Below are positions 2,616-18,303 of a stretch of 64,000 nucleotides of DNA, in pieces. Source of the DNA: an uncultured Roseivirgaceae bacterium (lineage in GTDB: Bacteria > Bacteroidota > Bacteroidia > Cytophagales > Cyclobacteriaceae); NCBI GenBank assembly GCA_964459925.1, contig CAYWOQ010000003.1, positions 14,304 through 78,303 on the forward strand, read 5' to 3'. The position numbers were made by a program, and so were the translations under genes. The notes under the pieces were generated by a model. That model saw nothing but the letters and a program-made list of their open reading frames with translations, did not search any database and was not told the DNA's origin. Within the stretch, counting starts at the first letter, position 1; every line of letters starts with the position of its first letter.

Positions 2616-3827
2616 ATGATAGCTCATTTTGAAATGGATTTACTCTTTAAATATCTTCTCTATGTTGGCTTTGTTGGTGGAGTTCTAGCAACCAAGGCTC
2701 AAACTCAAGATATCGAGGTATGTCTACCGCATGGATTTACCAGCTCAAGTGAGAGATTTACAGAAATTCATTCTAGTGATTTTGTTAAAGTACCTACCGG
2801 AAAAGTCAAAATTCCAGTCGTAATTCACGTTTTTCATGATGGCGATTCAGGGAGAATTTCCATGGAACAAGCAAAATCAGGCCTTGCCATTATTAATAGA
2901 GATTTTAATGGATTAAATGATGATTTTAACAATATCGATCCTCGTTTTGATTCAATTAAATCAAAGATGAATATTGAATTTTCTTTGGCCAGAATAGATC
3001 CCAATGGTAATAAGACCAGTGGAATTATTTATCATGAAGATCGAGTGGCAGCTTTCAATAGAAACTTCAAGATCTATGATTATTCATGGGATAATTTCAA
3101 ATATTTAAACATCTATTTACCGATTTATAGTTACAGCAGGCCGTCCCTCAGAACAGCCTATGCAACATTACCAAGTACAAATGAATCGCTAGTTGGAAGA
3201 GACGGTATTGTACATAGTTCCGTTAGATGGGGGGTGGGTGAAAAATCGGAGTTGGAAGAAGAAAGTGAACTACTGTCTATAGCCACACATGAGGTCGGAC
3301 ATTGGCTCAACTTAAACCATACCTTTAGTTCAAATTGTAATGGAATTGGAGATTCAGTGGACGATACACCTCCAACACTAGGAGATTCCATTACTTTTTC
3401 TGGTTGCAAAAATTTTGACTTTAGCTGTGGTGTTCCTAGCAATGGCTCAAATTACATGAACTATAATCACGGATGTAAAAAAATGTTTACCAAGGGTCAG
3501 GTAAATCGAATGCTGGAATCTTTAGTGCATCCCTCACGAGTACAACACTGGTCATTAGAAAATTTAATTGCTACAGGATTACTAGAAACACAAACCAATG
3601 AGTCATTAGCAGTTTTTTTTGATAACAGAGAGATATTAACATTTCTTTCCAACAAACCAATGTCTCGTTTAGAGCTTTTTGATCATACAGGCCGAAATGT
3701 ATACCAGAAAAATACACTTGAACAAACTATTCTGGCAATAGAAAAGCTAAAGACAAAAGGACTAATTCTCTACAGGGCTTTCTTCGCAGATAACACAATT
3801 GAGTCTGGTAGAATTATCGCTCGCTGA
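2616..3827 (+). CDS. M43 (pappalysin/ulilysin-like) zinc metalloprotease with degenerate T9SS C-terminal domain
   Basis: HEVGHWLNLNH zinc motif, Met-turn NYMNY, FTKGQVNRM; IPVVIHV start of catalytic domain; C-terminal LFDHTGRNV...GLILY resembles a type A CTD. Confidence 0.85.
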   Translation: MIAHFEMDLLFKYLLYVGFVGGVLATKAQTQDIEVCLPHGFTSSSERFTEIHSSDFVKVPTGKVKIPVVIHVFHDGDSGRISMEQAKSGLAIINRDFNGLNDDFNNIDPRFDSIKSKMNIEFSLARIDPNGNKTSGIIYHEDRVAAFNRNFKIYDYSWDNFKYLNIYLPIYSYSRPSLRTAYATLPSTNESLVGRDGIVHSSVRWGVGEKSELEEESELLSIATHEVGHWLNLNHTFSSNCNGIGDSVDDTPPTLGDSITFSGCKNFDFSCGVPSNGSNYMNYNHGCKKMFTKGQVNRMLESLVHPSRVQHWSLENLIATGLLETQTNESLAVFFDNREILTFLSNKPMSRLELFDHTGRNVYQKNTLEQTILAIEKLKTKGLILYRAFFADNTIESGRIIAR

Positions 3828-3832
3828 TAGTT

Positions 3833-6800
3833 TTATTCTCCGATCATCACAAATGCACCCCAATAATACGGTTTTTTGTATTTATCTCTGATTCGTTTTT
3901 GGGCTGAGTTAAATGCTCGCTGTTTATCCCCATGGGATAACCATTCCTCGTAAAAAACGGTCATCAACTCTTGGGTTGCATCGTCATCCACTGTCCACAT
4001 GGACATAATTATCGCATCTGCTCCTGCAATTTGAAACGCTCTTTGTAATCCATAGACCCCTTCTCCATTTTTGATCTCTCCAAGGCCTGTTTCACAAGCA
4101 GACATTACTACAACATCGGTTTTATCCAGATTCATATTCATTGCCTCGTAGGCGGTAAGAATTCCATCATCTCCATTGTGTTCTGCAGTGATCTCTCCTT
4201 GTTGAATATATGTATTGGCCCCTGCCAATATCAACCCAGATCTCAAAAGCGGATTCTCAGCATAAGAATCCTCGCTCTTTTCATCAGGATCTAATTCAAG
4301 AAAAAATCCGTGTGTTGCGATATGTAAGATGTTCGGATTATCCACACTTTTAAGTGTTCCCTCTAACGCATCGTTCAAGAAATATGAATCTGCTTTTTTG
4401 TCCGTTTCCGCGTATAGGCTGTCGATGAGTTCTACTTCCTTTTTAGTACCCGGAAGCATGGCCAAACCGTTGAATGACCTCATGTATCGAACCAGATTCC
4501 CTCTGACTCCTCGGGGTATGGAAGCCCCACGAGCCAATGATCCTTCTCCACCACTTCTTGTGCCTCGAATCCCACGCACGCCTCTAACGCCTCTGTCCTC
4601 TGCTTCTCCGGTTGTCGCTTCATCTGCACCCATACTGTACTCAGGATAGCCAAAAAAGACACTCCTGCCTCCTGGTTCAAAAGCTGGTGACTCTTCTAAC
4701 AAGTCTTTGGTGTTTGTTACCAACGCCAAATCAATTTCATCCAGAAGATAATTCTTGGTTTTGGAGTTTTGCAATGTATAGATACTGATCTGATTATAGA
4801 CACCGTCAGGGGCAAAGTAGATTTTGTCTATGCCATCAAGTCTTCTTGCAATCGGTTCCCAGAAAAGTCGATACGAGTAATTTTCAGAAATTTTAAATCG
4901 TATGGCATTTCGATAATTGGCCAGGAATTTTTTCTCCATTTGCGCACCATTCCGGAGGATGACCATCTCAGGATAATCTTCAGTATCATGACGAACGATC
5001 ATTGCTGCGTAGTGAACTTCATCGGAAAATACACCAGCTGAATCAGTGGAGAAATTTCGGTACCTCACCATTTCTACGGCAGCTTCACCAGGTTTTAATA
5101 CGTCACGAATATCTTTCCATGATAAGCTTTTGTTCGCAAAGTTTTTCCCAAAGGCTTGAGATGATTTGCTCAATTCCTCTTCCAGTGCATTAGAGGTGAT
5201 AGTAAGTGAATCGATTTTTTTATTCCTAAGAACAATATCCATATCGGTTGCACTGAAGAGCTTAGCCATCTGCTCTTTTTGAGATATCCATAATTCAAAC
5301 TTATCAATCAAGGTTTGATCACCGCTAGACAGGATGCTTTCCCTCACTTTTGAAGTAGCATACATGATTAATCCTTTTAACGCTAACTGATAATCATATA
5401 TCTCGCCAAGCAATTCTTTGTCTTCTCTGGAGGTCTCTTCAATAAAAGAAATATACTGCTCAAAACCAGGTCGAAGCTTTGTGTAGTAGAATGTTGCTTT
5501 TTCCTCCTCCGTAAGAACGGGAAAGAAACTATTGATCTGTTTAAAATAATTTTTGAAAGTCTCTTGGTAGTATTTAAGGGCTTCTTTTGAATTGCCTTTC
5601 TTCCAATTAAGAACCGCCATCTGTCTGGTCGTTCTTGCATAAAGTGGATGTGTAGTTCCCAGCGTCTTTTTCCTAATTTGTAATGCTTCAGAAGCTAGCT
5701 GTTCTGCCTTATCCAGTTCATCGTAGATCATGTAGGCATTACTAAGATTATACATGGGTCTAGAGGTTTCCCAGTTAGATTCTCCTAGCACCTCTCTATA
5801 TACAGAAATAGCTTCTTCTCCATTTTTAATCGCTAGATCAGTTTGCCCGTTATTGACATATAACTCAGAAAGTTGACTCTGTGCTCTAGCATAGTCTAGG
5901 TTATTTTTATCTCCGCTTGATTCAATCACACTCAAGGCCGTCTTAAATGCTTTTTCAGCAGGACCGAAGTTTCTTGCATAACTATAAGAACGTCCAAGAT
6001 TAATCAGATCTAGTCCATAGATGAAGGAGTCCTCACCATAATATTCTTTATTCGACTCAGCTACCTCTTTCTGTATTTCGATAGCTTTTTCATAATTACC
6101 AAGATTGAAATAAACTCTTGCAAGATTTCCATTTATTGCAACAATAGCATCTTCATTCTCTCCTTGGGATCTTTCTAGAATACTTATGGCCTCAAGAAAT
6201 AATTCTTCCGCTTCAGGAAGTTTACTTTTATCTTCATAAAGAATTGCCAGACTATTTAAAGTAGAGACGTACTCAAAAGTTGTTTCAAGTCCATTTTCAA
6301 AAGCAATATCTACTGCATTCATGTACGTTTTCTCTGCTTTTCGATAATCACCTTTGATGGCATGGCAATCACCAATTGAGTTGAAGACGCCAATTTTTTC
6401 TGCAGGTGCCGACACATTTTTTTGTAAATCTTTCAGAACAGCTAGTCCTTTTTCTGCATCCTCCGTTAACAGGTACAATTCTGTCAGTGCCATGGAAGAA
6501 TCAAAGAAATCTGCGCTTTTCTTTCCACTTTTTTTAGCGTCAGCTTCTCTCAGTTCCACCAGGATTTTCTCAGCTTTTGTATAATAACCGAGCTCCGTTT
6601 GAATTCCTGCGATACTGAAAAGTGTATTGCTTGCAGTTTCCTCCGGTTGAATCTTCTTTCGAAGATCTAATTCGAGCGTGTAATAATCCAGTGCTTTTTG
6701 TAGCTCCCCAGTTTCCCAGTAGTATGCTTCGGCCAGGAAGGAATATACATTAGCCGCAACCGTATCTTCTTTATTTAAGAAAGTTTCTTGTGCTTTTTCT

Positions 6801-6943
6801 TCGTTATCCAATATCACCTGATAGTCATAATCAAGTACAGCATCATCCAGCTTGTAGTAAAATTTTTCTTCTTTCTTACTGGCAAACTGTGCCATTAGTG
6901 TGGTGGAAATGAGGCAAAGTATCAGCGCTTTTAAATATTTCAT
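3833..6943 (-). CDS. Signal-peptide-bearing TPR + CHAT (caspase-like, clan CD) protease
   Basis: N-terminal signal peptide; many TPR-like repeats; CHAT catalytic His (LHIATHGFF) and Cys (VVMSACETGLG); C-terminal PYYWGAFVMIG. Confidence 0.92.
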   Translation of the reverse strand: MKYLKALILCLISTTLMAQFASKKEEKFYYKLDDAVLDYDYQVILDNEEKAQETFLNKEDTVAANVYSFLAEAYYWETGELQKALDYYTLELDLRKKIQPEETASNTLFSIAGIQTELGYYTKAEKILVELREADAKKSGKKSADFFDSSMALTELYLLTEDAEKGLAVLKDLQKNVSAPAEKIGVFNSIGDCHAIKGDYRKAEKTYMNAVDIAFENGLETTFEYVSTLNSLAILYEDKSKLPEAEELFLEAISILERSQGENEDAIVAINGNLARVYFNLGNYEKAIEIQKEVAESNKEYYGEDSFIYGLDLINLGRSYSYARNFGPAEKAFKTALSVIESSGDKNNLDYARAQSQLSELYVNNGQTDLAIKNGEEAISVYREVLGESNWETSRPMYNLSNAYMIYDELDKAEQLASEALQIRKKTLGTTHPLYARTTRQMAVLNWKKGNSKEALKYYQETFKNYFKQINSFFPVLTEEEKATFYYTKLRPGFEQYISFIEETSREDKELLGEIYDYQLALKGLIMYATSKVRESILSSGDQTLIDKFELWISQKEQMAKLFSATDMDIVLRNKKIDSLTITSNALEEELSKSSQAFGKNFANKSLSWKDIRDVLKPGEAAVEMVRYRNFSTDSAGVFSDEVHYAAMIVRHDTEDYPEMVILRNGAQMEKKFLANYRNAIRFKISENYSYRLFWEPIARRLDGIDKIYFAPDGVYNQISIYTLQNSKTKNYLLDEIDLALVTNTKDLLEESPAFEPGGRSVFFGYPEYSMGADEATTGEAEDRGVRGVRGIRGTRSGGEGSLARGASIPRGVRGNLVRYMRSFNGLAMLPGTKKEVELIDSLYAETDKKADSYFLNDALEGTLKSVDNPNILHIATHGFFLELDPDEKSEDSYAENPLLRSGLILAGANTYIQQGEITAEHNGDDGILTAYEAMNMNLDKTDVVVMSACETGLGEIKNGEGVYGLQRAFQIAGADAIIMSMWTVDDDATQELMTVFYEEWLSHGDKQRAFNSAQKRIRDKYKKPYYWGAFVMIGE

Positions 6944-7200
6944 GGTAGTGTGTAGTTAAGCAGAAACGTAAAAGATTTTGAGAAGCTTAGTAGACAATTT
7001 AACGATTGATAAAATTAATACATTGCTTCTCTTCGATTTTTACAATTAATAGTGGAAATAGTAACATTAGTCGAATTAATGAAATAGTAATGCATATAAT
7101 AAGACTCAGAAAGCTCTTTACAGCGAATACCCAAATTCTGGTATTTCCATTAAGAAATTAGTTCACTAAATTGAAGAATTAAACTACCATCATACTGTCC

Positions 7201-10200
7201 ATGAAGCAATATTTACACCGAAAGACACTTGTCTGCGTTCTTTTCTTTGCCTTTTCTTTCCAAGCTTCCGCTCAATTCATCACGACATGGGCGGCTACTG
7301 GAGGATCAGTGACCATTCCGGTTCGTACCCCAACATATACCTACAATTACACTGTCACCTGGAGTAATCTCACCAATCCCGGAACTCTTGAAGGAACTCA
7401 GTCCAATATAACCGATGCGTTTACTATCACTCCACTCGAAGATGGCAGCATTTATCAAATTGAAATATCTGGCACCTATCCTTCCATTTACTTTAACAAT
7501 ACAGGAGATAAGGATAAGATACTAAGCGTCGAGCAATGGGGAACAAACCTTTGGGCTTCTATGCAGGAAGCCTTTTATGGGTGCACGAATTTAGTTATTA
7601 ATGCCGCTGATGCACCCGACCTTACTGGTGTAATTTCCCTTAGGCAGACCTTTAGAGGTTGTACAAGTTTTAATCAATCGATCGAATCCTGGGATGTAAG
7701 TAATGTGGTGGAGTTTTTCAGAATGTTTCAAGATGCAAGTTCCTTCAATCAACCATTAAATGGATGGAATATTGCCAGTGCCAACGATGTTTCTCATATG
7801 TTCTTAGGAGCCTCTGCATTTAATCAACCTCTTGACAACTGGAATACGACGGGAGTCACGCAGATCAAAGTCATGTTTCAAAATGCAACGAGCTTCAATC
7901 AGAATATCAATAACTGGGATGTGAGTTTGGTGACAGACATGGCTGGGACATTCGAAGGGGCTACCAGCTACAACCAGCCATTGAATAATTGGAATGTGGG
8001 GGATGTAACAACCTTTGGGAACATGTTTTTTGGTGCTTCTTCTTTTGATCAGTCACTGGGAGATTGGGATATGGGCAATGCTTCCAGTATTGGGTTTATG
8101 CTTTTTAATTCTGGCCTTTCTACCACCAATTATAGCAATACACTTATTGGTTGGGCAACTCAATCTGGCAGTTTGCAAAATGGTGTTTCCATGAATGCAA
8201 ACCTGAATTACAACAATGCCGGACAAACAGCCAGAAATATTCTGACCGGGGCACCAAATGATTGGGCAATTAGCAATGATACTTTTGTTGCCGATCTTAC
8301 AGTAACCAACACTAATGATTCTGGTCCCGGCTCACTCAGTGAGGCCATCCTGGACGCGAATGCTATTCCCGGCTCTACTATTTCCTTCAATATTCCTACA
8401 AGTGATGATAACTGGGACGGCACCTATTGGACGATAACACCTACCAATGCGCTCACGATCACAGGAGACGAAACAACCATTGATGGATACACACAGCCCG
8501 GATCATCGGTAGCAACTGAAGGAACCCCTGCTGAATTAAGAATCATTGTCAATGGAAGTGGAAAGCTTGGTTCGACAATGGGAGTAAATGGTAATAACAT
8601 TACTATAAGAGGATTGGTAATACAGGAAGCCCCTAATAATAGTCCTAATTTATTCGTAGCAAATGGCTCTAATATTAAAGTAGAGGGTTGTTACGTTGGG
8701 ACCACACCAGATGGTTTGGATAAGGACGCTAGCACAAGTGTTGGAGTCTCAGTCCAGAATTCCTCGACTAATGTAACAATTGGGGGAACTACACCCACGG
8801 AGCGAAACATTCTGAGCGGAAATAGTGGTGTAGGCTTATCGGAAGACCTGAATAATGTTAAGGTAATTGGAAATTACATTGGGGTTCAGCCTGATGGTCT
8901 GACCTTAATGCCTACTCCAACGAGAGGTGGGGTTGATATCAACTTGAATCCAGGTGCAGATGTTACCATCGGGGGAATCGCTGAAGGGGAGGGAAATATA
9001 ATTGCTGGGAATGGGCTCTTTTCAGAAGACGGGCTAAGCACCTTTGACGCTGAAGGAACAGTGACCATACTTGGTAATTCTTTCTACAATAATTCAGGAT
9101 TAGGTATTGACTTTATTTCAGATGATGTGACTTCCAACGATGGTTTCGAAGAGCCTGATGGAATTCAAAATTTTCCGGTTATAACCAGTGCAAGTCAAGC
9201 TGGTCCTGATTTTAATATTCAGGGGACGTTGATAAGTACACCCGGAACTGATTTCAGACTGGAGTTTTTCAGCAATCTAGCTGCGGATCCATCAGGCTTT
9301 GGCGAGGGAGAAGTTTTCTTAGGCGCAGCTAACGTCACCACAAATGGTTCAGGAGATGCACCATTTGACATTGACCTAACCTCTGTTTCTGTTTCTCCAG
9401 GAGCTTTTATCACAGCAACAGCCACCTCTTTTACCGCCGGGCCTATTTATGGCTCCACTTCTGAGTTTAGTCAGGCCTTTCAAACGCAGCGTTCTTTCAC
9501 CACCACCTGGGAAACAACAACAACTAATGAAACCATTACTATTGGAACCGGGGCTGGCACCTATGATTACACCATCAATTGGGGTGATGGAACCATCCAA
9601 AACTTAATAACTGGTGACCCCACGCACACATATGTTACACCAGGGACTTACACGGTGCAAATCACAGGTACGTTTCCTCATATTCAATTGAATAATAGTG
9701 GCTCTGCACCCAAATTGCAAAGCATCGAACAATGGGGCGATATTGCCTGGACTTCTTTTTCGAATGCCTTCAACGGATGTACCAACCTCACGTACAACGC
9801 AGCGGATGTACCGGATCTGACGGCCGTAACTACCATGTTTAATGCATTCCGCAACGCAACGTCATTCAATGGAGACATTAGCGGATGGGATGTAAGCAGT
9901 GTAGAGGGTTTTGCGTCCATGTTTTTCAACGCAACGTCCTTTGACCAACCCATTGGAAGCTGGAATACCAGCAGTGCTACAAACATGGAGTCGATGTTCC
10001 AGGGAGCTGCTAGCTTCAACCAACCACTAAACACGTGGACGGTATCGAATGTCACAAATATGAGAGATATGTTCAATGATGCCGTCCTGTTCGATCAACC
10101 ATTGAATAGCTGGGATGTTTCCTCTGTGACCGACATGACCGCATTGTTTCAGGATGCAACCGCTTTTAATGGCGCAATTGATCAATGGGATGTTTCCAGC

Positions 10201-13200
10201 GTTAATTCCATGGCTCAGATGTTCCAGAGAGCTACGGGTTTCAACCAGCCCTTGAATAACTGGGCAGGGAATACTGCTTCTGTTACTGACATGTCAATAA
10301 TGTTTTTTGGCGCAGACGCCTTTGATCAGCCCATTGATCAATGGGATGTTTCCAGCGTTACCACGATGGCGCAAATGTTTAGAGAGGCAGACCTTTTTAA
10401 TCAGGACCTAGGTGCCTGGGTACCATCATCATTGGAAAATATCAATGCAATGTTTCAGAATGCCGCAGCCTTCAACGGTGCCCTTGACGGATGGGGAGCG
10501 AACACTGCATCGGTCACCAATATGAGTCAGACTTTCGGTGGAGCCATTGCTTTTAACCAGCCACTAAATAGCTGGAATACATCAAGTGTAACCAATATGA
10601 GTGGAATGTTCCAGGGAGCCAGTATGTTCAATCAGCCCCTAAATGGCTGGAATACCACTTCGGTGACAACCATGAGTAGTATTTTTCAGGATGCAGACAT
10701 GTTCAATGGAGCTATTGATTTATGGGATGTCTCAGCAGTGACTAATATGGACTTAATGTTCTTTAACGCCAGCTCATTCAATCAGTCACTTGGTAGTTGG
10801 AACGTCACATCAGTCACATTAATGGGTGGTATGCTTTCAAATACTGGATTATCTGTGGTGAATTACGATGCAACATTGAATGGGTGGGCATCGCAGACAG
10901 CCTCTCTTCAAAGTGGAGTGAGTCTAGATGTAAATGGACTCGTTTACTCAGCTATTGGAGCACCTGGAAGGTTAGTGCTGACAGGTACTAATCTTTGGAA
11001 CATTGCTGGTGATACTCCTTCATTCCCCACCGATGTAAGTGGTATAATTTCCACCAACACCACCTGGACTTTGTTGGGTAGTCCGTACAATGTCACAGGT
11101 TCAGTTACAGTAGACAACGGCGTAACGTTGACAATTGAGCCTGGCGTAATTGTCCAATTCAACAGTAGCAACACAGACCTTACCATCAATGGGACGTTGC
11201 TCGCAGATGGGCTGCCAGGTGATTCAATTTACTTCCAAAATAACTTTGCCTCCATTTTCTTAACTGCCTCCAGTACTGGTTCCATCGTTGATCACGCCAG
11301 ATTCGACAATATGGGCGTCTTCAACGTAGCAGCACTCAACGTTTCAAGTGATGCAACCATTACCAATGCAAAGTTTGAAGGATGTGAAGTTGGGGTTACA
11401 ATTCTTGATGCAGCCAGTCCAACTATCCAGGATAGTGAAATAGTTACTTCCACTGATTATGGGATCCGAGTAGATAATGGATCTCCAAGTATTTCGGGTG
11501 TGACCATTGATAATGCCGCACTTGGTGGCATTTGGATTCAAGCCGGAAACCCTTCCATTACCAGTAATGCTATTTCCAATGTGGGTAACGATGGGGGAAT
11601 CTGGATCAACACCGCTGATGTACCTACGATTGAGAACAATACTTTTAGCAGCAATGCGCGTGACATACAGGCAGACCCTAGAGTGCTTGACGATGAAAAT
11701 TTTGATACCAATGGACTGAGTATAATTCATATTAGTGGTAGCACAATTGCCGGAAATGTGCTGTGGCAAGCACCTCAGTCGCCAGAAAACTGGATTTATG
11801 AAGTAATTGGTAATATTTTAGTCGATGCGGGCGTATCCCTGACCATAGAACCGGGTGTTACCGTCCAATTCAACAATAGCAACACAGACCTTACCATCAA
11901 TGGGACGTTGCTCGCAGATGGGCTGCCAGGTGATTCAATTTACTTCCAAAATAACTTTGCCTCCATTTTCTTAACTGCCTCCAGTACTGGTTCCATCGTT
12001 GATCACGCCAGATTCGACAATATGGGCGTCTTCAACGTAGCAGCACTCAACGTTTCAAGTGATGCAACCATTACCAATGCAAAGTTTACTAACTGCGAAG
12101 TAGGAGTTACTGTTGATAACGGGGCAACTTCGACTCTGGATCAACTTTGGATCTCGGACGCGACTGATTTTGGAATATTAGTGGAGGGTACCGCGACCGC
12201 TCCAAGCGTTAGTAACTCAACGATCATCAATAATGGACTCGGTTTGACTGATACGGGAATTAACAATACAGGAACTGGTACCGTAGTAGCAATTGACAAC
12301 TGGTGGGGAGATGTAACCGGACCATTTAATAGCACTACCAACGCTTCAGGCCTTGGCAATGGAGTAAGTGATAATGTGACTTTCGTGCCATTCCTAAATA
12401 GTGATCCCTTCGGACCACCTGCAAATCCAACCGCGCTTTTCACCACAGAAGTTTCCTCCACTCAAATCAATCTATCTTGGGCAGACAATTCTGTTAATGA
12501 AACAGACTTTGCCATCTTCCGATCCGATGGAAATAATTCCAGCTACGTGGAGATTGGAACAGTTGAGGCAGATGCGACCAGCTATTCGGACAACACTGTC
12601 ACCGCGGATAATAACTACTTCTACTACATGGTTGCCCGAAATGGCGGAGGTGATTCAGCACCATCCAACGAACGGGCTGCTTCAACATTTGCACCACCGG
12701 GAAATGCATTGACTTTCGATGGAGTAAATGACTACATCTCCATTCCTGACCATTCAGCTTTTCAATTTGGCTCTGGTGATTTTACATTAGAAGCCTGGTT
12801 TTATTTTGATGGAACGGATACGCGAGAAACACTAATTTCTAAACGGAATCCTACTACTCCTTTTGATCAATATTTTATTTCTATTGGAGATGGTCTCATA
12901 AACTCAACCGTCGGGAAAAAAGTCTATGCAGGAGTTCTACCAGACAATAGGATAGGCTCAGGAAATGAGGAATCTGTAGACAGAATAGTAAGTGCATCAA
13001 GTGATCTAGCCGAAGGTTGGCATCACACTGCCTTAGTTCAGGGATACACAAGTGGACTAACACTTTATCTTGATGGCCAATCTGTTTCTACCGATTCAGA
13101 TAGTCATAGCGGAGGAGTTATAAATGCTATTGGCAATGACTTGACATTAGGTTCAAGCTCTGGTACTCTTGGCTTTTTCGATGGCCAAATGGATGAGGTA

Positions 13201-16200
13201 CGGATTTGGAATATGGCTCGAACAGAGGCTGAAATTCAATCCACGATCCTTACAGGTTTAACTGGCAATGAACCCGGTTTAATCGCCTACTACAAATTCG
13301 ACCAAACCGACCCTTTGATCACGGTCCTACCGGATCGTAGCATCAATACCAATGAAGGGGCACTAACAAATTTTGGTGGTGCTGCTACTTGGAGTGCTTC
13401 TGGGGCCTTATCTGACCCTTTTACAGGCGAGGTTATAAACACCAACGATTCAGGACCTGGTTCATTGAGACAGGCTATTTTGAGCGCAAATGCGTCGCCT
13501 GGATCTACCATTACGTTTAACATCGGAAGCGCTGCTCCTTGGAATATTGTCTTGTCAAGTGCCCTGCCGCAAATAACTGGAATAGGTACGATCATCGACG
13601 GATCTACCCAGTCGGGTTGGGATATGGATACCGATCAACTCATTCACCTTGATGGAAGCTCACTGGTGTCATCGGAGGTGGGCATCGATGTAAACACTGA
13701 TAACGTAGAGATTTATGGATTAAAAATCACAGGTTTTCCAAGTCATGGAATCACTACACAGGTTTTTGCCAATGCACTGATAGTTGGTGGACTTGATCGA
13801 GGTAACGTAATTAGTGGTAATGGGTTTGATGGAATGCGTGTAAACGATGTAACAGCTAGGTACAATAGAATCGGAACTACGTCTGACGGACAATCCGCAA
13901 ATGGAAATGCCAACTTTGGAATGACTATTGGAAGTGGATCTATAGTAGAACATAACCTTATCTCCGGTCATAATGGACCTGGGCGTGCAGGTATTTTTTC
14001 AAATGCTTCCGGTGGCCATACAATTGCAAATAATTTTATTGGGATAAATGCAGCAGGTAATGCAGCTATTCCCAATACAAGAGGCATTGTTATCGTAACA
14101 GGTGGATCAAGTACCATCGTGAACAATGTGATTTCTGGTAATACGGAGGCAGGAATATATTCAAATACCGGTTTTAATAATAATGATGTCATCAACAATA
14201 TCATCGGACTGGATGCAGGTGGCACAGTCGCAATCCCTAATGGGGCCGGTATCTCCTTCGTAGGCAGTAATAACCGAATAGGATACAAAGACAATCCCAA
14301 TATCATTGCTGAGAATACGGGTCCTGCCATTCAATTTGGAGGAACAGGAACAAATAATACCTGGGTGACGAACGCTATTTACGGTAATGGCTCAGGAATT
14401 GTAATCAGTGGAGGTGGTAATAATGGAATATTGCCTCCCACAATATCTTCAGCTAGTGCGACGGACGTTTCTGGTTCTGGCCTAGATGGTGATATGATTC
14501 ACCTTTATTTAGGAGATGGAAATGGTCAGGGAGAAAGCTTACTTGACAGTGTACAGGTTACCAGTGGCACATGGGATATTGGTGGGCTTTCCTTAGGAGG
14601 CACAGATCAGGTAGTCGCTACAGCTACCAATGCTAATGGTACATCTGAATTCTCCACAAGCAGGATGGTTGAAGATTTAGCTCCGCCATCCTTCATTTCC
14701 GGTTTCCCAACTATCCCAACGGTTGGTACTGATAATTTTGATATTGAAGTACAATTAGATGAAATAGGTGATTTATATATTATTGTGGCACCTGATGGAG
14801 ATCCTGCACCAACAGTAACCGAAATTGTAAATGAAGAACTTAGTGGCGGAGGAAACCCAATCGGCTCAGGCTTCATCAATGTTCTTAATCCATCTACCAC
14901 TTTTGGGTTAAACATTGCTGGATTGTCCCCAGAAACACCATATGATGTGTATGTTCTAGCACGTGATGCTGTTGGAAATCTTCAAACATCCCCACTGTTA
15001 CTTGAAATCACCACAAATCAACTATTCCCGGACGTCACCTTTACCACTATTGACGTTCCTGGTATTGATATTGATTTGGGGACATTCGATAATTTGGTTT
15101 ATCAATTTTCAGTTACTGCCACAGGAGGTGATGTCACCCAGCAATCCTTTGGCTTTGGATTAGGTGGCGATGCGATTCCTACAAACTTTGCTATCGATGG
15201 TTGGAAGTTGTACGAAAGTGTGAATGTAGATGCTGGAGTTGGAGGGGCTACACTGGTCGGGACAACTAATATCGGAGATGTGCTTGCGGATAGTGTTGGC
15301 TTTACGTTAACGAATCAAATCCTGAATGGAGATACCCACTATTTTTATTTAACAGCCGATATCAGCGACAGTGGTTCAGTAGGATCGACCTTCAATGTAG
15401 GTCTTACAGGACCAGATCCCTTAGAGAGCTTTAGTATTGCGGATCCCAAAAACAAAATTGATGGAGGCTTTGTCAATGGTAACACCTTCACCTTGAGCGG
15501 AGATGTCACCCCTCCAATCATTGCGATAGATACTCCTATCGAAGGGGACGATCTGGTAAATGCTGTCGAAGCACTCGATGTAGCGATCAGTGGAACTACT
15601 GATGCAGAAGACGATCAAATCGTTACTGTAAGCCTTGATGACTCGGTTAACCCTGCTGTACAAGTCTTAGCGACCGTAGCTAGTGGCGTATGGACCGCAG
15701 CAGTAGCAGATATTTCTGGACTGGATGATGGAGTAATTACCATCTCTGCAGATGTGGATGACTTGGCAGGTAACTCGGCTACTTCAGCAGTCGAAATGAT
15801 CACATTGGATAAAGTTGCTCCTTCTGTTACGGTAGCTGATTTACTATCCAATGAAGTTAGTCCAACACTATCCGGAACGGTGGACGATCCTGATGCAACC
15901 ATTGATGTGACAGTAGATGGCAATTCATACCCTGCCACCAATAATGCCGATGGTACCTGGACTCTGGTAGCTGGTACGATCACACCTGATCTTATTGAGG
16001 GAACCTATGAAGTAGCTGTTGAGGCAACGGATTTAGCAGGTAACATGGGAACAGATGCTTCCACCAATGAATTGGTGATTGACCTTACTGCTCCAGCGGT
16101 GACCATTGATGAACTCATCACATCCTTGGCCAGTCCGGGTATCACCGGAACTGTGAATGACACTGATGCCGTGTTGGATTTGATCGTAGATGGTTCCAAC

Positions 16201-18303
16201 TATGCTCCTATCAATAATGGTGATGGGACCTGGTCATTAGCTGCTGGTTTAATCACACCTCTCGCAGAGGGAGTCTATGATCTGGTAATCGATGCTATGG
16301 ATGTGGCCGGCAATGTTGGAACAGACAATTCTGAAAATGAACTTACCATCTCTCAAAACATTATCAGCTTTACTGCTACTGATATCACAGCTACAAGTTT
16401 TACAGCCAGTTGGACGCAAGCTGAAGATGTCTCTAATTACACCCTGGATGTGTCCAGAAGTGCTGACTTCAGTTCGTTCGTCTCCGGTTATGAAGCTCTT
16501 AGTGTACCAGCTGATCAAACATCTATTGAAGTCTCCGGGCTTGACTTCAGTACCAGCTATTTCTACCGGGTCAGGTTTACCAATACCAATGACGTAGCGT
16601 CCGGAAATAGCAACACAATTGCCTTGAAAACAATCATCGATCCTGAAACCGTAGCTGATTCTTTAGCTTTGGTAGAGATCTTTAATGCTGTCAATCCTCA
16701 AGGATTAAACTGGAATTCAGGTGCCCGATTAATCGATTGGGGTGGCGTTACTTTAGATGGGACCAGAACGAGGGTTGCTGGTATTGACATCAGTAGTACC
16801 CAATCAGCAGGTGACTTGCCTAACCCATTCTCTGCGGATGTCACAACTGATGGCGGGCTTTCTGCCCTCACTACCTTCAGCGCTAGTGACAATAACCTGA
16901 CAGGGCTTTTTGACTTTTCTGGTACTAGCATTAATGCGGTGAACGTTGCGAACAACAACCTCACCTTTGAAGATTTAGAGCCTCTTGCAGGAACTGCAAC
17001 CTTCACCTATGCGCCACAGGCAGATCGAACATTTGTTGCTGAGACAAACCCTGACTTCTTGAAAGTAATCCTTAACTCTCAAGAAACCGTACGGATTGTT
17101 CCAGCAAGTGAATCTTATTCCTTGCTTACTAACCTGAGAGGCTTTGCCAATGTCTACAACTGGACAAAAGATGGAGCCAGTATCTCCGGAGACCGATACA
17201 CCTTTGCAAGTTCTTTCCTGACCATCAATGGTATCGCCATTGACAACATGGGGCTCTTTGGATTGACGGTGACCAATACCGATTTACCTGACCTGACGTT
17301 GAACTTCCTGCCCGAGTCAGTATTCGCTACAGCAGACATTGAAATGAGGCTGACTGATTTCAGTAATGTATTATTAGATGCATCAGAGCGTTTTGATGCG
17401 GCACTGCTGGATATCAACTCTGAAGGGGCTAGTTACGATACCCTTGAAGCGATAGATGGTACTACTTCAAGCTTCTTCTTTAATGATGTGATCCTGGGTG
17501 ATTACCTCTGTGGTATAGACCCGCTCAATCGAGAAGAATTTGTGCCTACGTATTTCGGTGATGCCTTTGAATGGATTGAGGCGGATACCGCAGAAATTAG
17601 AGATGATCTGACCTTATCTATCCAGATGACCGAAGACCCTGAACCACCTCAGGGTGGTGAAGGAACACTAGACATAGTGATAGAAGAAGATTTTGGTGAT
17701 GAGGAAGCTCGAGTTGATGCACGTAGGAGAGCCAAGCGAAGAAAATGTGGCTTGAGAAGAAGAAGAACCGGAGGACGTACCGGTCAGAATGATGGTGAGT
17801 TTGAACTCTTTGCTTATGGTGAAACCAACGACAATGGGGAGTTCCAGTTTGGGTTCTTACCGGAAGGTGTTTATCGGTTCTTTGTGGAGTATCCTGGTAT
17901 TCCGTTAGACCCGAATGCTGAAGTGGAATTCGAGGTAGGAGAGCAGGGAATATCGGATACAGAATTCTCACTGGTCGCCTTTGCATCTGAAGATGGCGTT
18001 GAAGTGGAAATTGATCGGATTCTTGGGCTTATTCTGACCTACTTCAAAGATTTGGAAGTGTATCCGAATCCCTCTTCAGATGACCTGAACATCCGATACA
18101 GGCATCTTAAGTCTGCTGATGTTACGGCTGAACTCGTAGATCTAACCGGTCAAATCAAATGGAGCCAGGATCTTCAAAACGGATACAATGGCAACCTAAC
18201 CATTGACGTATCAGAATATCCTGCCGGTATCTATATCCTACGATTCTATGATCGTAATAGTAAAAATGAACATGTGGTGGGTTATCGGGTCTTGAAAAGA
18301 TAA
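7201..18303 (+). CDS. Giant (3700 aa) T9SS-secreted mosaic surface protein: 2 DUF285/BspA-like LRR blocks, 2 CSLREA-like + beta-helix modules, PKD, parallel beta-helix, FN3, LamG, bacterial Ig-like repeats, plant-type LRR, CTD
   Basis: Signal peptide; 25-aa WDVSxVTxMxxMF repeats; TNDSGPGSL(S/R)xAI twice; INWGDG; SWADNS FN3; ALTFDGVNDY LamG; terminal VYPNPSSD...GIYILRF type A CTD. Confidence 0.9.
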   Translation: MKQYLHRKTLVCVLFFAFSFQASAQFITTWAATGGSVTIPVRTPTYTYNYTVTWSNLTNPGTLEGTQSNITDAFTITPLEDGSIYQIEISGTYPSIYFNNTGDKDKILSVEQWGTNLWASMQEAFYGCTNLVINAADAPDLTGVISLRQTFRGCTSFNQSIESWDVSNVVEFFRMFQDASSFNQPLNGWNIASANDVSHMFLGASAFNQPLDNWNTTGVTQIKVMFQNATSFNQNINNWDVSLVTDMAGTFEGATSYNQPLNNWNVGDVTTFGNMFFGASSFDQSLGDWDMGNASSIGFMLFNSGLSTTNYSNTLIGWATQSGSLQNGVSMNANLNYNNAGQTARNILTGAPNDWAISNDTFVADLTVTNTNDSGPGSLSEAILDANAIPGSTISFNIPTSDDNWDGTYWTITPTNALTITGDETTIDGYTQPGSSVATEGTPAELRIIVNGSGKLGSTMGVNGNNITIRGLVIQEAPNNSPNLFVANGSNIKVEGCYVGTTPDGLDKDASTSVGVSVQNSSTNVTIGGTTPTERNILSGNSGVGLSEDLNNVKVIGNYIGVQPDGLTLMPTPTRGGVDINLNPGADVTIGGIAEGEGNIIAGNGLFSEDGLSTFDAEGTVTILGNSFYNNSGLGIDFISDDVTSNDGFEEPDGIQNFPVITSASQAGPDFNIQGTLISTPGTDFRLEFFSNLAADPSGFGEGEVFLGAANVTTNGSGDAPFDIDLTSVSVSPGAFITATATSFTAGPIYGSTSEFSQAFQTQRSFTTTWETTTTNETITIGTGAGTYDYTINWGDGTIQNLITGDPTHTYVTPGTYTVQITGTFPHIQLNNSGSAPKLQSIEQWGDIAWTSFSNAFNGCTNLTYNAADVPDLTAVTTMFNAFRNATSFNGDISGWDVSSVEGFASMFFNATSFDQPIGSWNTSSATNMESMFQGAASFNQPLNTWTVSNVTNMRDMFNDAVLFDQPLNSWDVSSVTDMTALFQDATAFNGAIDQWDVSSVNSMAQMFQRATGFNQPLNNWAGNTASVTDMSIMFFGADAFDQPIDQWDVSSVTTMAQMFREADLFNQDLGAWVPSSLENINAMFQNAAAFNGALDGWGANTASVTNMSQTFGGAIAFNQPLNSWNTSSVTNMSGMFQGASMFNQPLNGWNTTSVTTMSSIFQDADMFNGAIDLWDVSAVTNMDLMFFNASSFNQSLGSWNVTSVTLMGGMLSNTGLSVVNYDATLNGWASQTASLQSGVSLDVNGLVYSAIGAPGRLVLTGTNLWNIAGDTPSFPTDVSGIISTNTTWTLLGSPYNVTGSVTVDNGVTLTIEPGVIVQFNSSNTDLTINGTLLADGLPGDSIYFQNNFASIFLTASSTGSIVDHARFDNMGVFNVAALNVSSDATITNAKFEGCEVGVTILDAASPTIQDSEIVTSTDYGIRVDNGSPSISGVTIDNAALGGIWIQAGNPSITSNAISNVGNDGGIWINTADVPTIENNTFSSNARDIQADPRVLDDENFDTNGLSIIHISGSTIAGNVLWQAPQSPENWIYEVIGNILVDAGVSLTIEPGVTVQFNNSNTDLTINGTLLADGLPGDSIYFQNNFASIFLTASSTGSIVDHARFDNMGVFNVAALNVSSDATITNAKFTNCEVGVTVDNGATSTLDQLWISDATDFGILVEGTATAPSVSNSTIINNGLGLTDTGINNTGTGTVVAIDNWWGDVTGPFNSTTNASGLGNGVSDNVTFVPFLNSDPFGPPANPTALFTTEVSSTQINLSWADNSVNETDFAIFRSDGNNSSYVEIGTVEADATSYSDNTVTADNNYFYYMVARNGGGDSAPSNERAASTFAPPGNALTFDGVNDYISIPDHSAFQFGSGDFTLEAWFYFDGTDTRETLISKRNPTTPFDQYFISIGDGLINSTVGKKVYAGVLPDNRIGSGNEESVDRIVSASSDLAEGWHHTALVQGYTSGLTLYLDGQSVSTDSDSHSGGVINAIGNDLTLGSSSGTLGFFDGQMDEVRIWNMARTEAEIQSTILTGLTGNEPGLIAYYKFDQTDPLITVLPDRSINTNEGALTNFGGAATWSASGALSDPFTGEVINTNDSGPGSLRQAILSANASPGSTITFNIGSAAPWNIVLSSALPQITGIGTIIDGSTQSGWDMDTDQLIHLDGSSLVSSEVGIDVNTDNVEIYGLKITGFPSHGITTQVFANALIVGGLDRGNVISGNGFDGMRVNDVTARYNRIGTTSDGQSANGNANFGMTIGSGSIVEHNLISGHNGPGRAGIFSNASGGHTIANNFIGINAAGNAAIPNTRGIVIVTGGSSTIVNNVISGNTEAGIYSNTGFNNNDVINNIIGLDAGGTVAIPNGAGISFVGSNNRIGYKDNPNIIAENTGPAIQFGGTGTNNTWVTNAIYGNGSGIVISGGGNNGILPPTISSASATDVSGSGLDGDMIHLYLGDGNGQGESLLDSVQVTSGTWDIGGLSLGGTDQVVATATNANGTSEFSTSRMVEDLAPPSFISGFPTIPTVGTDNFDIEVQLDEIGDLYIIVAPDGDPAPTVTEIVNEELSGGGNPIGSGFINVLNPSTTFGLNIAGLSPETPYDVYVLARDAVGNLQTSPLLLEITTNQLFPDVTFTTIDVPGIDIDLGTFDNLVYQFSVTATGGDVTQQSFGFGLGGDAIPTNFAIDGWKLYESVNVDAGVGGATLVGTTNIGDVLADSVGFTLTNQILNGDTHYFYLTADISDSGSVGSTFNVGLTGPDPLESFSIADPKNKIDGGFVNGNTFTLSGDVTPPIIAIDTPIEGDDLVNAVEALDVAISGTTDAEDDQIVTVSLDDSVNPAVQVLATVASGVWTAAVADISGLDDGVITISADVDDLAGNSATSAVEMITLDKVAPSVTVADLLSNEVSPTLSGTVDDPDATIDVTVDGNSYPATNNADGTWTLVAGTITPDLIEGTYEVAVEATDLAGNMGTDASTNELVIDLTAPAVTIDELITSLASPGITGTVNDTDAVLDLIVDGSNYAPINNGDGTWSLAAGLITPLAEGVYDLVIDAMDVAGNVGTDNSENELTISQNIISFTATDITATSFTASWTQAEDVSNYTLDVSRSADFSSFVSGYEALSVPADQTSIEVSGLDFSTSYFYRVRFTNTNDVASGNSNTIALKTIIDPETVADSLALVEIFNAVNPQGLNWNSGARLIDWGGVTLDGTRTRVAGIDISSTQSAGDLPNPFSADVTTDGGLSALTTFSASDNNLTGLFDFSGTSINAVNVANNNLTFEDLEPLAGTATFTYAPQADRTFVAETNPDFLKVILNSQETVRIVPASESYSLLTNLRGFANVYNWTKDGASISGDRYTFASSFLTINGIAIDNMGLFGLTVTNTDLPDLTLNFLPESVFATADIEMRLTDFSNVLLDASERFDAALLDINSEGASYDTLEAIDGTTSSFFFNDVILGDYLCGIDPLNREEFVPTYFGDAFEWIEADTAEIRDDLTLSIQMTEDPEPPQGGEGTLDIVIEEDFGDEEARVDARRRAKRRKCGLRRRRTGGRTGQNDGEFELFAYGETNDNGEFQFGFLPEGVYRFFVEYPGIPLDPNAEVEFEVGEQGISDTEFSLVAFASEDGVEVEIDRILGLILTYFKDLEVYPNPSSDDLNIRYRHLKSADVTAELVDLTGQIKWSQDLQNGYNGNLTIDVSEYPAGIYILRFYDRNSKNEHVVGYRVLKR
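11166..11376 (+). repeat. 211-bp direct repeat copy 1 within giant gene
   Basis: Identical by eye to 11877-12087 (offset 711 nt = 237 codons). Confidence 0.9.
11877..12087 (+). repeat. 211-bp direct repeat copy 2 within giant gene
   Basis: Identical by eye to 11166-11376. Confidence 0.9.

Follow-up and report, generated by a model that had tools for sequence, protein, structure and literature searches.

A TPR-CHAT protease with a Sec signal peptide, divergently paired with a giant type IX secretion surface protein in a Roseivirgaceae bacterium and its relatives

Head-to-head genes of a TPR-CHAT protease and a giant surface protein

We analyzed a stretch of 64,000 nucleotides from an uncultured Roseivirgaceae bacterium (GenBank assembly GCA_964459925.1, contig CAYWOQ010000003.1, positions 14,304 to 78,303; hereafter, the window), in which the gene of a TPR-CHAT protease and the gene of a giant surface protein of the type IX secretion system (T9SS) diverge from a short shared intergenic region (Table 1). 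A first-pass annotation made from the letters of the window had described these genes as a head-to-head pair across 257 bp, and both open reading frames (ORFs) were found in their places. The same order was met in 14 loci, which is more than chance would give.

The CHAT domain of the protease matches Pfam PF12770 (clan CD) at 194.4 bits (cutoff, 24; E 3.6e-57), and its TPR part is matched by TPR_12 in six stretches, by TPR_10, and by TPR_MalT; the Pfam matches consist of these TPR families and CHAT only, and the SAVED sensor domain is not among them. The catalytic dyad, H878 in HIATHG and C950 in SACETG, is invariant in 65 of 65 aligned homologues and is thus as intact as had been proposed. 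In the AlphaFold2 (AF2) model (pLDDT 82.9), residues 23–615 are all-helical and are followed by a caspase-like domain, the same succession of helical repeats and caspase-like fold as in separase and craspase. The top Foldseek matches of this model are human separase, DdvA (8rot/8rw5), and Csx29 (8eey_B), with E values of 3e-12 to 1e-9, and a sequence search of the PDB matched TPR proteins only.

Both proteins of the pair start with a Sec signal peptide and have Gln at +1 (..LMA/QF in the protease and ..ASA/QF in the giant, the slash marking the cleavage site), as described by the Bacteroidetes Q-rule (PMC5837995). The signal peptide of the protease, which had also been recognized at first pass, is kept by all full-length homologues. 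A Por_Secre_tail or other T9SS C-terminal sorting domain (CTD) was sought in the protease by Pfam and none was found, and a lipoprotein was ruled out, as Cys10 lies outside any lipobox and is not conserved among the homologues. Therefore, with a conserved Sec signal peptide, Gln at +1, and neither a CTD nor a lipobox, the CHAT protein is expected to be located in the periplasm.

An Arg/Gly-rich (RG) insertion of 55–60 residues precedes the LPGT helix of the CHAT domain. It is restricted to the giant-paired clade (P0001-P0050) and is absent from CHAT homologues of 40% identity or less. The insertion has an acidic start, followed by RG(V/M)RG repeats, R-S-G-G, and the conserved IPRG(V/I)RGNLVRYMRSFNGL, and the AF2 model shows residues 773–808 of it as disordered (pLDDT below 50). 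As judged from the alignment, the RG-rich loop marks exactly the giant-paired CHATs.

How does this protein compare with known caspase-like proteases? Separase (PDB 9hn0, 7nj1), the top Foldseek match, likewise has helical repeats followed by a caspase-like domain, and it cuts after Arg in an acidic (S/D/E)xExxR motif and also cuts itself within a loop, a feature similar to the acidic-then-Arg loops of the present proteins; however, separase is a eukaryotic protein of the cytoplasm or nucleus under the control of securin, and it shares only about 10% sequence identity with the window CHAT. Csx29 of the craspase (type III-E CRISPR-Cas; PDB 8eey, 7y84) has the same TPR-CHAT architecture and gave the best target-normalized TM-scores, 0.55–0.57. 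On the other hand, Csx29 is cytoplasmic, bound to Cas7-11/gRAMP, activated by RNA, and cleaves Csx30, whereas the window protein has a signal peptide and no cas genes nearby; neither Cas7-11/gRAMP nor Csx30/31 adjoins it. The SAVED-CHAT effectors of type III CRISPR and of CBASS (antiphage systems that signal by cyclic oligonucleotides) have SAVED fused to CHAT, a domain that the window CHAT lacks.

PorU and the gingipains (C25, clan CD) are cysteine proteases that act on T9SS cargo, and PorU removes the CTD. They belong to the C25 family, have a CTD of their own, and act at the cell surface, whereas the window protease belongs to the CHAT family and has no CTD.

The first-pass annotation took characterized bacterial CHATs to be cytoplasmic throughout, a premise that no longer holds, since DdvA of Myxococcus xanthus has a periplasmic TPR-CHAT, whose activity has not been demonstrated and for which autoproteolysis has been proposed (PMC11506125). 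DdvA and the window protein are alike in having a TPR array that is extracytoplasmic (in the window protein, by prediction), followed by a CHAT domain with the canonical His-Cys dyad. DdvA, however, has an N-terminal zinc anti-sigma domain, a transmembrane helix, an extracytoplasmic function (ECF) sigma partner, DdvS, and control of a CBASS/CRISPR island, whereas the window protein has an 18-residue cleavable signal peptide that leads directly into the TPR helices, no sigma gene in its neighborhood, and a T9SS giant as its partner. A CRISPR, CBASS, SAVED, or sigma/anti-sigma context was found neither by PADLOC nor by Pfam nor among the neighboring genes, and an assignment of the CHAT to a defense system was dropped, the PADLOC match being weak and generic to TPR.

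The giant carries six DUF285 domains, Beta_helix, Laminin_G_3, Big_13, and fn3 domains, and a Por_Secre_tail (E 3e-12), which NCBIfam TIGR04183 also recognizes at 39.2 bits (cutoff, 23). Having a Sec signal peptide at its N-terminus and Por_Secre_tail/TIGR04183 at its C-terminus, it shows both features of a T9SS type-A cargo protein. Core T9SS genes were not recognized in the window, where no search aimed at the T9SS machinery was made; given the phylum and the many CTD proteins, the machinery is likely encoded in the genome. Like the SprB-type adhesins of gliding Bacteroidota, the giant is a repetitive, strain-variable protein of several thousand residues with the marks of T9SS export, but SprB has a type-B CTD and SprF/PorP-like partner genes, whereas the giant has a type-A CTD, a polybasic-Cys domain before it, and a CHAT protease as its partner.

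The C-terminal module of the giant is 51–52% identical to the C-termini of the giants at two other loci (L062 and L063) and 45–49% identical to the second T9SS proteins of the same loci; it occurs in other CHAT-paired giants as well as in unpaired T9SS proteins. Its AF2 model (pLDDT 84.3) is a chain of immunoglobulin (Ig)-like sandwiches, for which Foldseek returned generic Ig/fn3 chains only.

Inheritance, loss, and relocation of the pair

A genome scan with the CHAT as the query gave 57 loci. In all, the pair was seen in 14 loci (the window, L001-L009, L011, L016, L058, and L065), over a range of CHAT identity from 84% down to 47%, and in the paired loci the divergent giant ORF with its signal peptide begins about 250–340 bp from the CHAT. 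The giants of L001-L009, L011, and L016 extend past the 10-kb flank, and the region was also approached from the far side, via the gene of a PDZ/Asp protease. The same divergent arrangement was seen in Ekhidna sp. To15 (L058), with a giant of 5469 residues, and in a 3.92-Mb Ekhidna genome (L065), with a giant of 596+3278 residues. The latter (L065:1-9671, minus strand) is called as two genes 4 nt apart; the gene may truly be split, or a frameshift or an error of sequencing may be the reason. L005 and L062, both from Ekhidna OY829375.1, connect by their coordinates into a single giant of 8819 residues. The lengths of the paired giants (596+3278, 3700, 4443, 5469, and 8819 residues) and their domain mixes differ, and the CHAT is conserved throughout.

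The outer flanks of the window are syntenic in relatives, with DUF6503 and PD40 on one side and PDZ/Asp, SNF2, FtsX, RbfA, RpiB, TatC, SHMT, and RadA on the other. Three loci of related genomes (L064, L075, and L076) lack both the CHAT and the giant and retain the RadA-SHMT-TatC-RpiB-RbfA-FtsX-SNF2-PDZ/Asp flank; the PD40-DUF4440 flank is also retained in two of these pairless loci, L064 and L075, and in L064 PD40 directly abuts PDZ/Asp. Furthermore, in the CHAT clade of 47–48% identity (L007-L009, L016), the pair lies at a different chromosomal site, adjoining PolA. Neither a CHAT nor a giant was seen as a singleton at the pair sites examined. These results show that the two genes have been inherited, lost, and relocated together in marine Cytophagales. 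Co-occurrence across genomes, on which the first-pass annotation had made its proposal depend, is thus borne out. Because the pair is conserved, jointly absent, and jointly relocated, a functional coupling of the CHAT and the giant is plausible on this comparative evidence.

Table 1. Positions of the pair and of its features in the window.
Feature	Position	Strand	Basis
TPR-CHAT protease gene, 1036 aa, predicted Sec-exported	3833..6943	-	ORF, Pfam TPR_12/CHAT, AF2/Foldseek
Giant T9SS type-A surface protein gene, 3700 aa	7201..18303	+	ORF, Pfam
Divergent intergenic region, 257 bp, shared	6944..7200	.	Conserved blocks, alignment of 9 orthologous regions
CHAT signal peptide, aa 1-18, MKYLKALILCLISTTLMA/QF	6890..6943	-	n-h-c organization, Gln at +1
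TPR/helical-repeat array, about aa 23-600	5144..6877	-	Pfam, all-helical AF2 model
CHAT protease domain, aa 691-1036	3836..4873	-	Pfam
Catalytic dyad of CHAT, His878 codon; Cys950 codon	4310-4312; 4094-4096	-	
Arg/Gly-rich insertion of CHAT, aa 769-827, ..GEAEDRGVRGVRGIRGTRSGG..IPRGVRGNLVRYMRSFNGL	4463..4639	-	Homologue alignment
Palindrome ATACC-N8-GGTAT, candidate operator	7127..7144	.	Motif enrichment
-7-like box TAAATTG of giant gene	7167-7173		Conserved in intergenic alignment
Giant signal peptide, aa 1-24, MKQY..QASA/QF	7201-7272	+	
Conserved C-terminal module of giant, aa 2942-3700: Big/fn3, LRR-like region, beta-sandwiches, CTD	16024..18300	+	
Acidic-to-polybasic-Cys cassette EEDFGDEEARVDARRRAKRRKCGLRRRRTGG, giant aa 3495-3525	17683..17775	+	
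Cassette core ARRRAKRRKCGLRRRRTGG	17719-17775	+	
Proposed EEAR/V cleavage site in cassette	17710-17715	+	
T9SS type-A C-terminal sorting domain, giant aa 3620-3688	18058..18264	+	PF18962, TIGR04183

The neighbors of the CHAT gene encode a PD40-repeat protein, an M43 peptidase, the giant, the PDZ/Asp protease, and an SNF2 protein, and the rest of the window is housekeeping. Two of these neighbors were considered as further members of the module and rejected: the PDZ/Asp protease is retained in genomes without the pair, and the M43 peptidase, present only in the window, L003, and L011 among the orthologous loci, is a variable passenger. The M43 metallopeptidase gene (2616-3827, plus strand) lies just downstream of the CHAT and has a weak match to a T9SS type-C tail. 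The SNF2-family helicase (19653-22568, minus strand) matches DpdE/ZorD in PADLOC (E 5e-140); it is probably not part of a defense system, because the housekeeping block in which it stands (FtsX, RbfA, RpiB, TatC, SHMT, RadA) is kept by every related genome. Two further loci (L010:4286-10757 and L012:2535-9006) have two tandem CHAT paralogues of 1074 and 1077 residues, about 46% identical to the window CHAT; their divergent neighbor with a signal peptide is cut by a contig end or a run of N, and they were treated as ambiguous. Three sequencing runs that cover the locus were found, all of microbial-mat DNA and none of RNA. The source organism is a mat-derived, Ekhidna/Roseivirgaceae-like bacterium of the Cytophagales.

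The polybasic-Cys cassette of the cargo proteins

The first-pass annotation had pointed to a switch from acidic to basic residues in the giant, about 200 residues before its CTD, as a place where the protease might cut. The switch is indeed there, and its distance needs correction: it lies 205 residues before the C-terminus and about 95 residues before the start of the CTD. Searching for homologues with the last 556 residues of the giant, we found the cassette near-invariant in 55 of 57 of them, with the pattern EEDF..(D/E)..R(I/V)xARRRAxxRKCGLRRxRxGGR...ELIAYGETNxNGEF, always 194–200 residues from the C-terminus. These homologues include stand-alone T9SS proteins of ~390 residues, leucine-rich repeat (LRR)/FG-GAP proteins, and dozens of Ekhidna T9SS proteins. 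No CHAT lies within 10 kb of the cassette proteins of L059 (two), L060, and L061 (three), and the same holds for most of the cassette-type proteins that were examined.

An exhaustive HMMER search with the cassette-bearing sandwich only gave at least 421 protein cluster representatives, 228 of them at E<=1e-10. Among the best 150, the polybasic-Cys motif is present in 116 (median distance to the C-terminus, 188 residues), and 49 reach a length of 2000 residues or more. A second tier of sandwich matches carries RR(K/R)VK(K/R)AGC(S)(L/M)RR instead. All five CHAT-paired giants with readable C-termini carry the module (those of the window, L062, P0310 of L065, P0306 of L058, and P0404). P0404 shares 95% and 93% identity with the giants of L007 and L016, respectively, and belongs with the CHAT clade of 48% identity; its cassette motif is degenerate and lacks the Cys.

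In the AF2 model, KCGLRRRR of the cassette forms a beta-strand of an Ig-like sandwich (pLDDT about 88), the preceding RVDARRRAKRR is helix or loop (pLDDT 56–64), and the TGGRTGQNDG loop after the strand is also of lower confidence. A low-complexity linker was ruled out by the near-invariance of the cassette together with the predicted strand. The Arg of the (D/E)xxR motif ahead of the polybasic block is at least 90% conserved and has acidic residues at P3–P5; this acidic-xx-Arg segment has a pLDDT of 56–64, and the same motif is common to cargo without a nearby CHAT. The single conserved Cys of the polybasic loop has no conserved partner Cys within the module (C-termini of P0298-P0436).

Is the cassette, then, a site made for the protease? 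Because it is common to many T9SS cargo proteins, most of which, among those examined, have no CHAT nearby, the sequence comparison says that the cassette belongs to a cargo family in general, as the local version of a polybasic-Cys loop in a beta-sandwich before the CTD, and is not a dedicated CHAT site. The idea of EEAR and its Arg cassette as a dedicated processing site is accordingly not supported, and the KCGLRRRR part is a predicted strand in a folded sandwich rather than a linker. The fixed position of the cassette relative to the CTD suggests a general role of the polybasic-Cys loop in secretion or surface anchoring, e.g., by contact with anionic lipopolysaccharide. In the literature, we found no description of a polybasic-Cys loop before the CTD.

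The giant may also be tied to other cassette genes by its regulation. The intergenic region has conserved blocks in an alignment of nine orthologous regions, and it contains the palindrome ATACC-N8-GGTAT, of which 13 matches were found in the 1.32 Mb of DNA searched against 1.5 expected (0–3 at other spacings). CHAT-giant intergenic regions account for five of the matches, and three more stand upstream of operons of other cassette proteins; besides the window, the palindrome stands at L004/L005 9728, L058 9782, L065 9730, L059 8438, L062 18466, and L063 17355. It is placed about 22 nt upstream of the TAAATTG -7-like box of the giant in the window, and about 22–25 nt across giants and cassette operons. 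The intergenic region lacks the canonical Bacteroidota -7 motif TAnnTTTG, and only the TAAATTG-like box is conserved there. By its enrichment and placement, the palindrome is a candidate operator of a shared cassette-protein regulon that would include the giant.

Two side observations concern the surroundings of cassette genes. At L003:14392-14496 (minus strand), an ORF of 34 residues, MKKLLKEQLKEVKGG/ARRRAKKRKCGLRKRRTGG followed by a stop codon, has a core identical to the most conserved block of the cassette and a leader that resembles a double-glycine bacteriocin leader (NCBIfam leader_Chryseo, weak, E 0.009). A perfect terminator hairpin follows it, and it stands some 60 nt upstream of the gene for the M43 peptidase homologue and two genes from the CHAT, beside an HlyD-like remnant and a Uma2-like fragment. 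The junction of double-glycine leader and core had no match in a metagenome scan, so the stand-alone peptide is a single observation; the core had nine matches in the scan, all by chance, in GC-rich DNA. Furthermore, secreted beta-helix-like proteins of about 300–385 residues without a Pfam match recur beside cassette T9SS genes (L062:16425-18411, L063:15303-17284, L060:7842-8936, and L061:19667-20824); they are 26–66% identical to one another, and none is present in the window.

Candidate roles of the pair

Could the protease act on the giant beside which it is encoded? This is the explanation that we favor, with slightly less than even confidence: the two proteins would form a functionally coupled pair, in which the protease acts on the periplasmic secretion intermediate of the giant. 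A Sec-exported, separase/DdvA-like TPR-CHAT cysteine protease without a T9SS sorting domain would reside in the periplasm, and the divergent gene would supply a hypervariable giant, rich in LamG and DUF285 domains, for secretion by the T9SS. The protease would then act on the giant during its secretion, be it in processing, in quality control, or in the clearance of stalled cargo. The TPR array would serve as the binding platform, and the disordered Arg/Gly loop might be an autoinhibitory or autoprocessing segment, by analogy with the self-cleavage of separase.

Several observations weigh against this explanation. Two independent events, or three, may be all that underlies the pattern of inheritance (an insertion in the Ekhidna lineage and a relocation), with phylogenetic inertia as a possible cause. 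Signal-peptide TPR-CHATs are widespread in Cytophagales, most of them without a giant neighbor, and homologues of 40% identity or less sit in unrelated contexts without giants. Conversely, three tandem T9SS giants (3037, 2189, and 3561 residues) were found with no CHAT in view in a 7.08-Mb genome (L077/L078; ERZ26052130 ctg19894c). The palindrome may tie the giant to other cassette operons and not to the CHAT. Finally, substrate specificity varies across CHAT proteases, being Arg in separase and Met or Leu in craspases (PMC11506125), and it is not readable from the sequence.

In the tandem giants of L077/L078, the polybasic-Cys motif is of the second tier, and a PDZ/Asp-SNF2 pair stands 4.5 kb away from them, which suggests that the PDZ/Asp-SNF2 landmark is a recurrent site of giant-adhesin islands.

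The strongest alternative is that there is no functional link at all and that the CHAT and the giant are neighbors on one variable genomic island, which travel together by descent and by shared insertion and deletion. The small number of independent events and the unrelated contexts of the distant TPR-CHATs speak for it, as does the variability of the PD40-PDZ/Asp site, which also takes up the M43 peptidase along with further T9SS genes and small genes of beta-helix proteins. However, adjacency and divergence persist down to 47% CHAT identity, despite a more than two-fold change in the size of the giant and the replacement of the opposite flank. In addition, the clade-specific RG loop coincides with the pairing, and no locus with one gene alone was met at the pair sites. 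We consider mere co-travel unlikely, though well within consideration.

A sentinel role similar to that of DdvA appears improbable. The periplasmic TPR-CHAT would, in this case, sense damage to the giant or its occupation (by phage, a competitor, or surface stress) and cleave another periplasmic target. DdvA (8rot, 8rw5) is among the top structural matches and is proposed to sense a protein signal (PMC11506125), and hypervariable giants are typical conflict targets. On the other hand, the CHAT protein has no transmembrane or anti-sigma domain, no ECF sigma gene lies nearby, the PADLOC match is weak and generic to TPR, and no output component was identified.

A bolder version of the coupling that we favor would make the TPR-CHAT a protease dedicated to giant T9SS cargo, which recognizes the polybasic-Cys loop or the C-terminal module while the giant crosses the periplasm, and which either permits secretion or degrades giants that have stalled. 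We regard it as a long shot; if true, it would give T9SS cargo handling its first caspase-like protease. More speculatively still, the protease might free the 19-residue cationic core that is also present as the free double-glycine-leader peptide in L003.

The cleavage model of the first-pass annotation, in which the CHAT cuts the adjacent giant after the Arg of EEAR and so releases or matures the adhesin, is very doubtful: in its favor are the conserved Arg of (D/E)xxR, the low model confidence of a segment that may be exposed, the presence of the module on all five readable paired giants, and a similar acidic-then-Arg pattern ending in R-S-G-G in the RG loop of the CHAT, which could be an autoprocessing site, but the cassette is found in many cargo proteins without a nearby CHAT, in protein clusters that far outnumber the members of the CHAT clade, is degenerate in the 48%-identity clade, is partly a structured strand, and, with a CHAT that has no CTD and is expected to be periplasmic, release of a surface-anchored adhesin is topologically unlikely.

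Periplasmic TPR-CHATs are already known from DdvA, and signal-peptide TPR-CHATs are common in Cytophagales. What is new is the conserved, co-inherited pairing of a CHAT with a T9SS giant, the clade-specific RG loop, and the widespread polybasic-Cys loop before the CTD; we found nothing relevant in the literature that links CHAT to T9SS, adhesins, two-partner secretion, or Bacteroidota. We know of no substrate for any extracytoplasmic CHAT protease, and little is understood of how surface proteins of 3,000–9,000 residues cross the periplasm and pass the T9SS. The protease-giant pair, present in cultivable Ekhidna strains, is open to genetic tests and provides a candidate periplasmic protease or chaperone that would be specific for its cargo. 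The polybasic-Cys loop, which occurs in hundreds of T9SS cargo families and appears to be undescribed, may concern the anchoring, recognition, or processing of the cargo.

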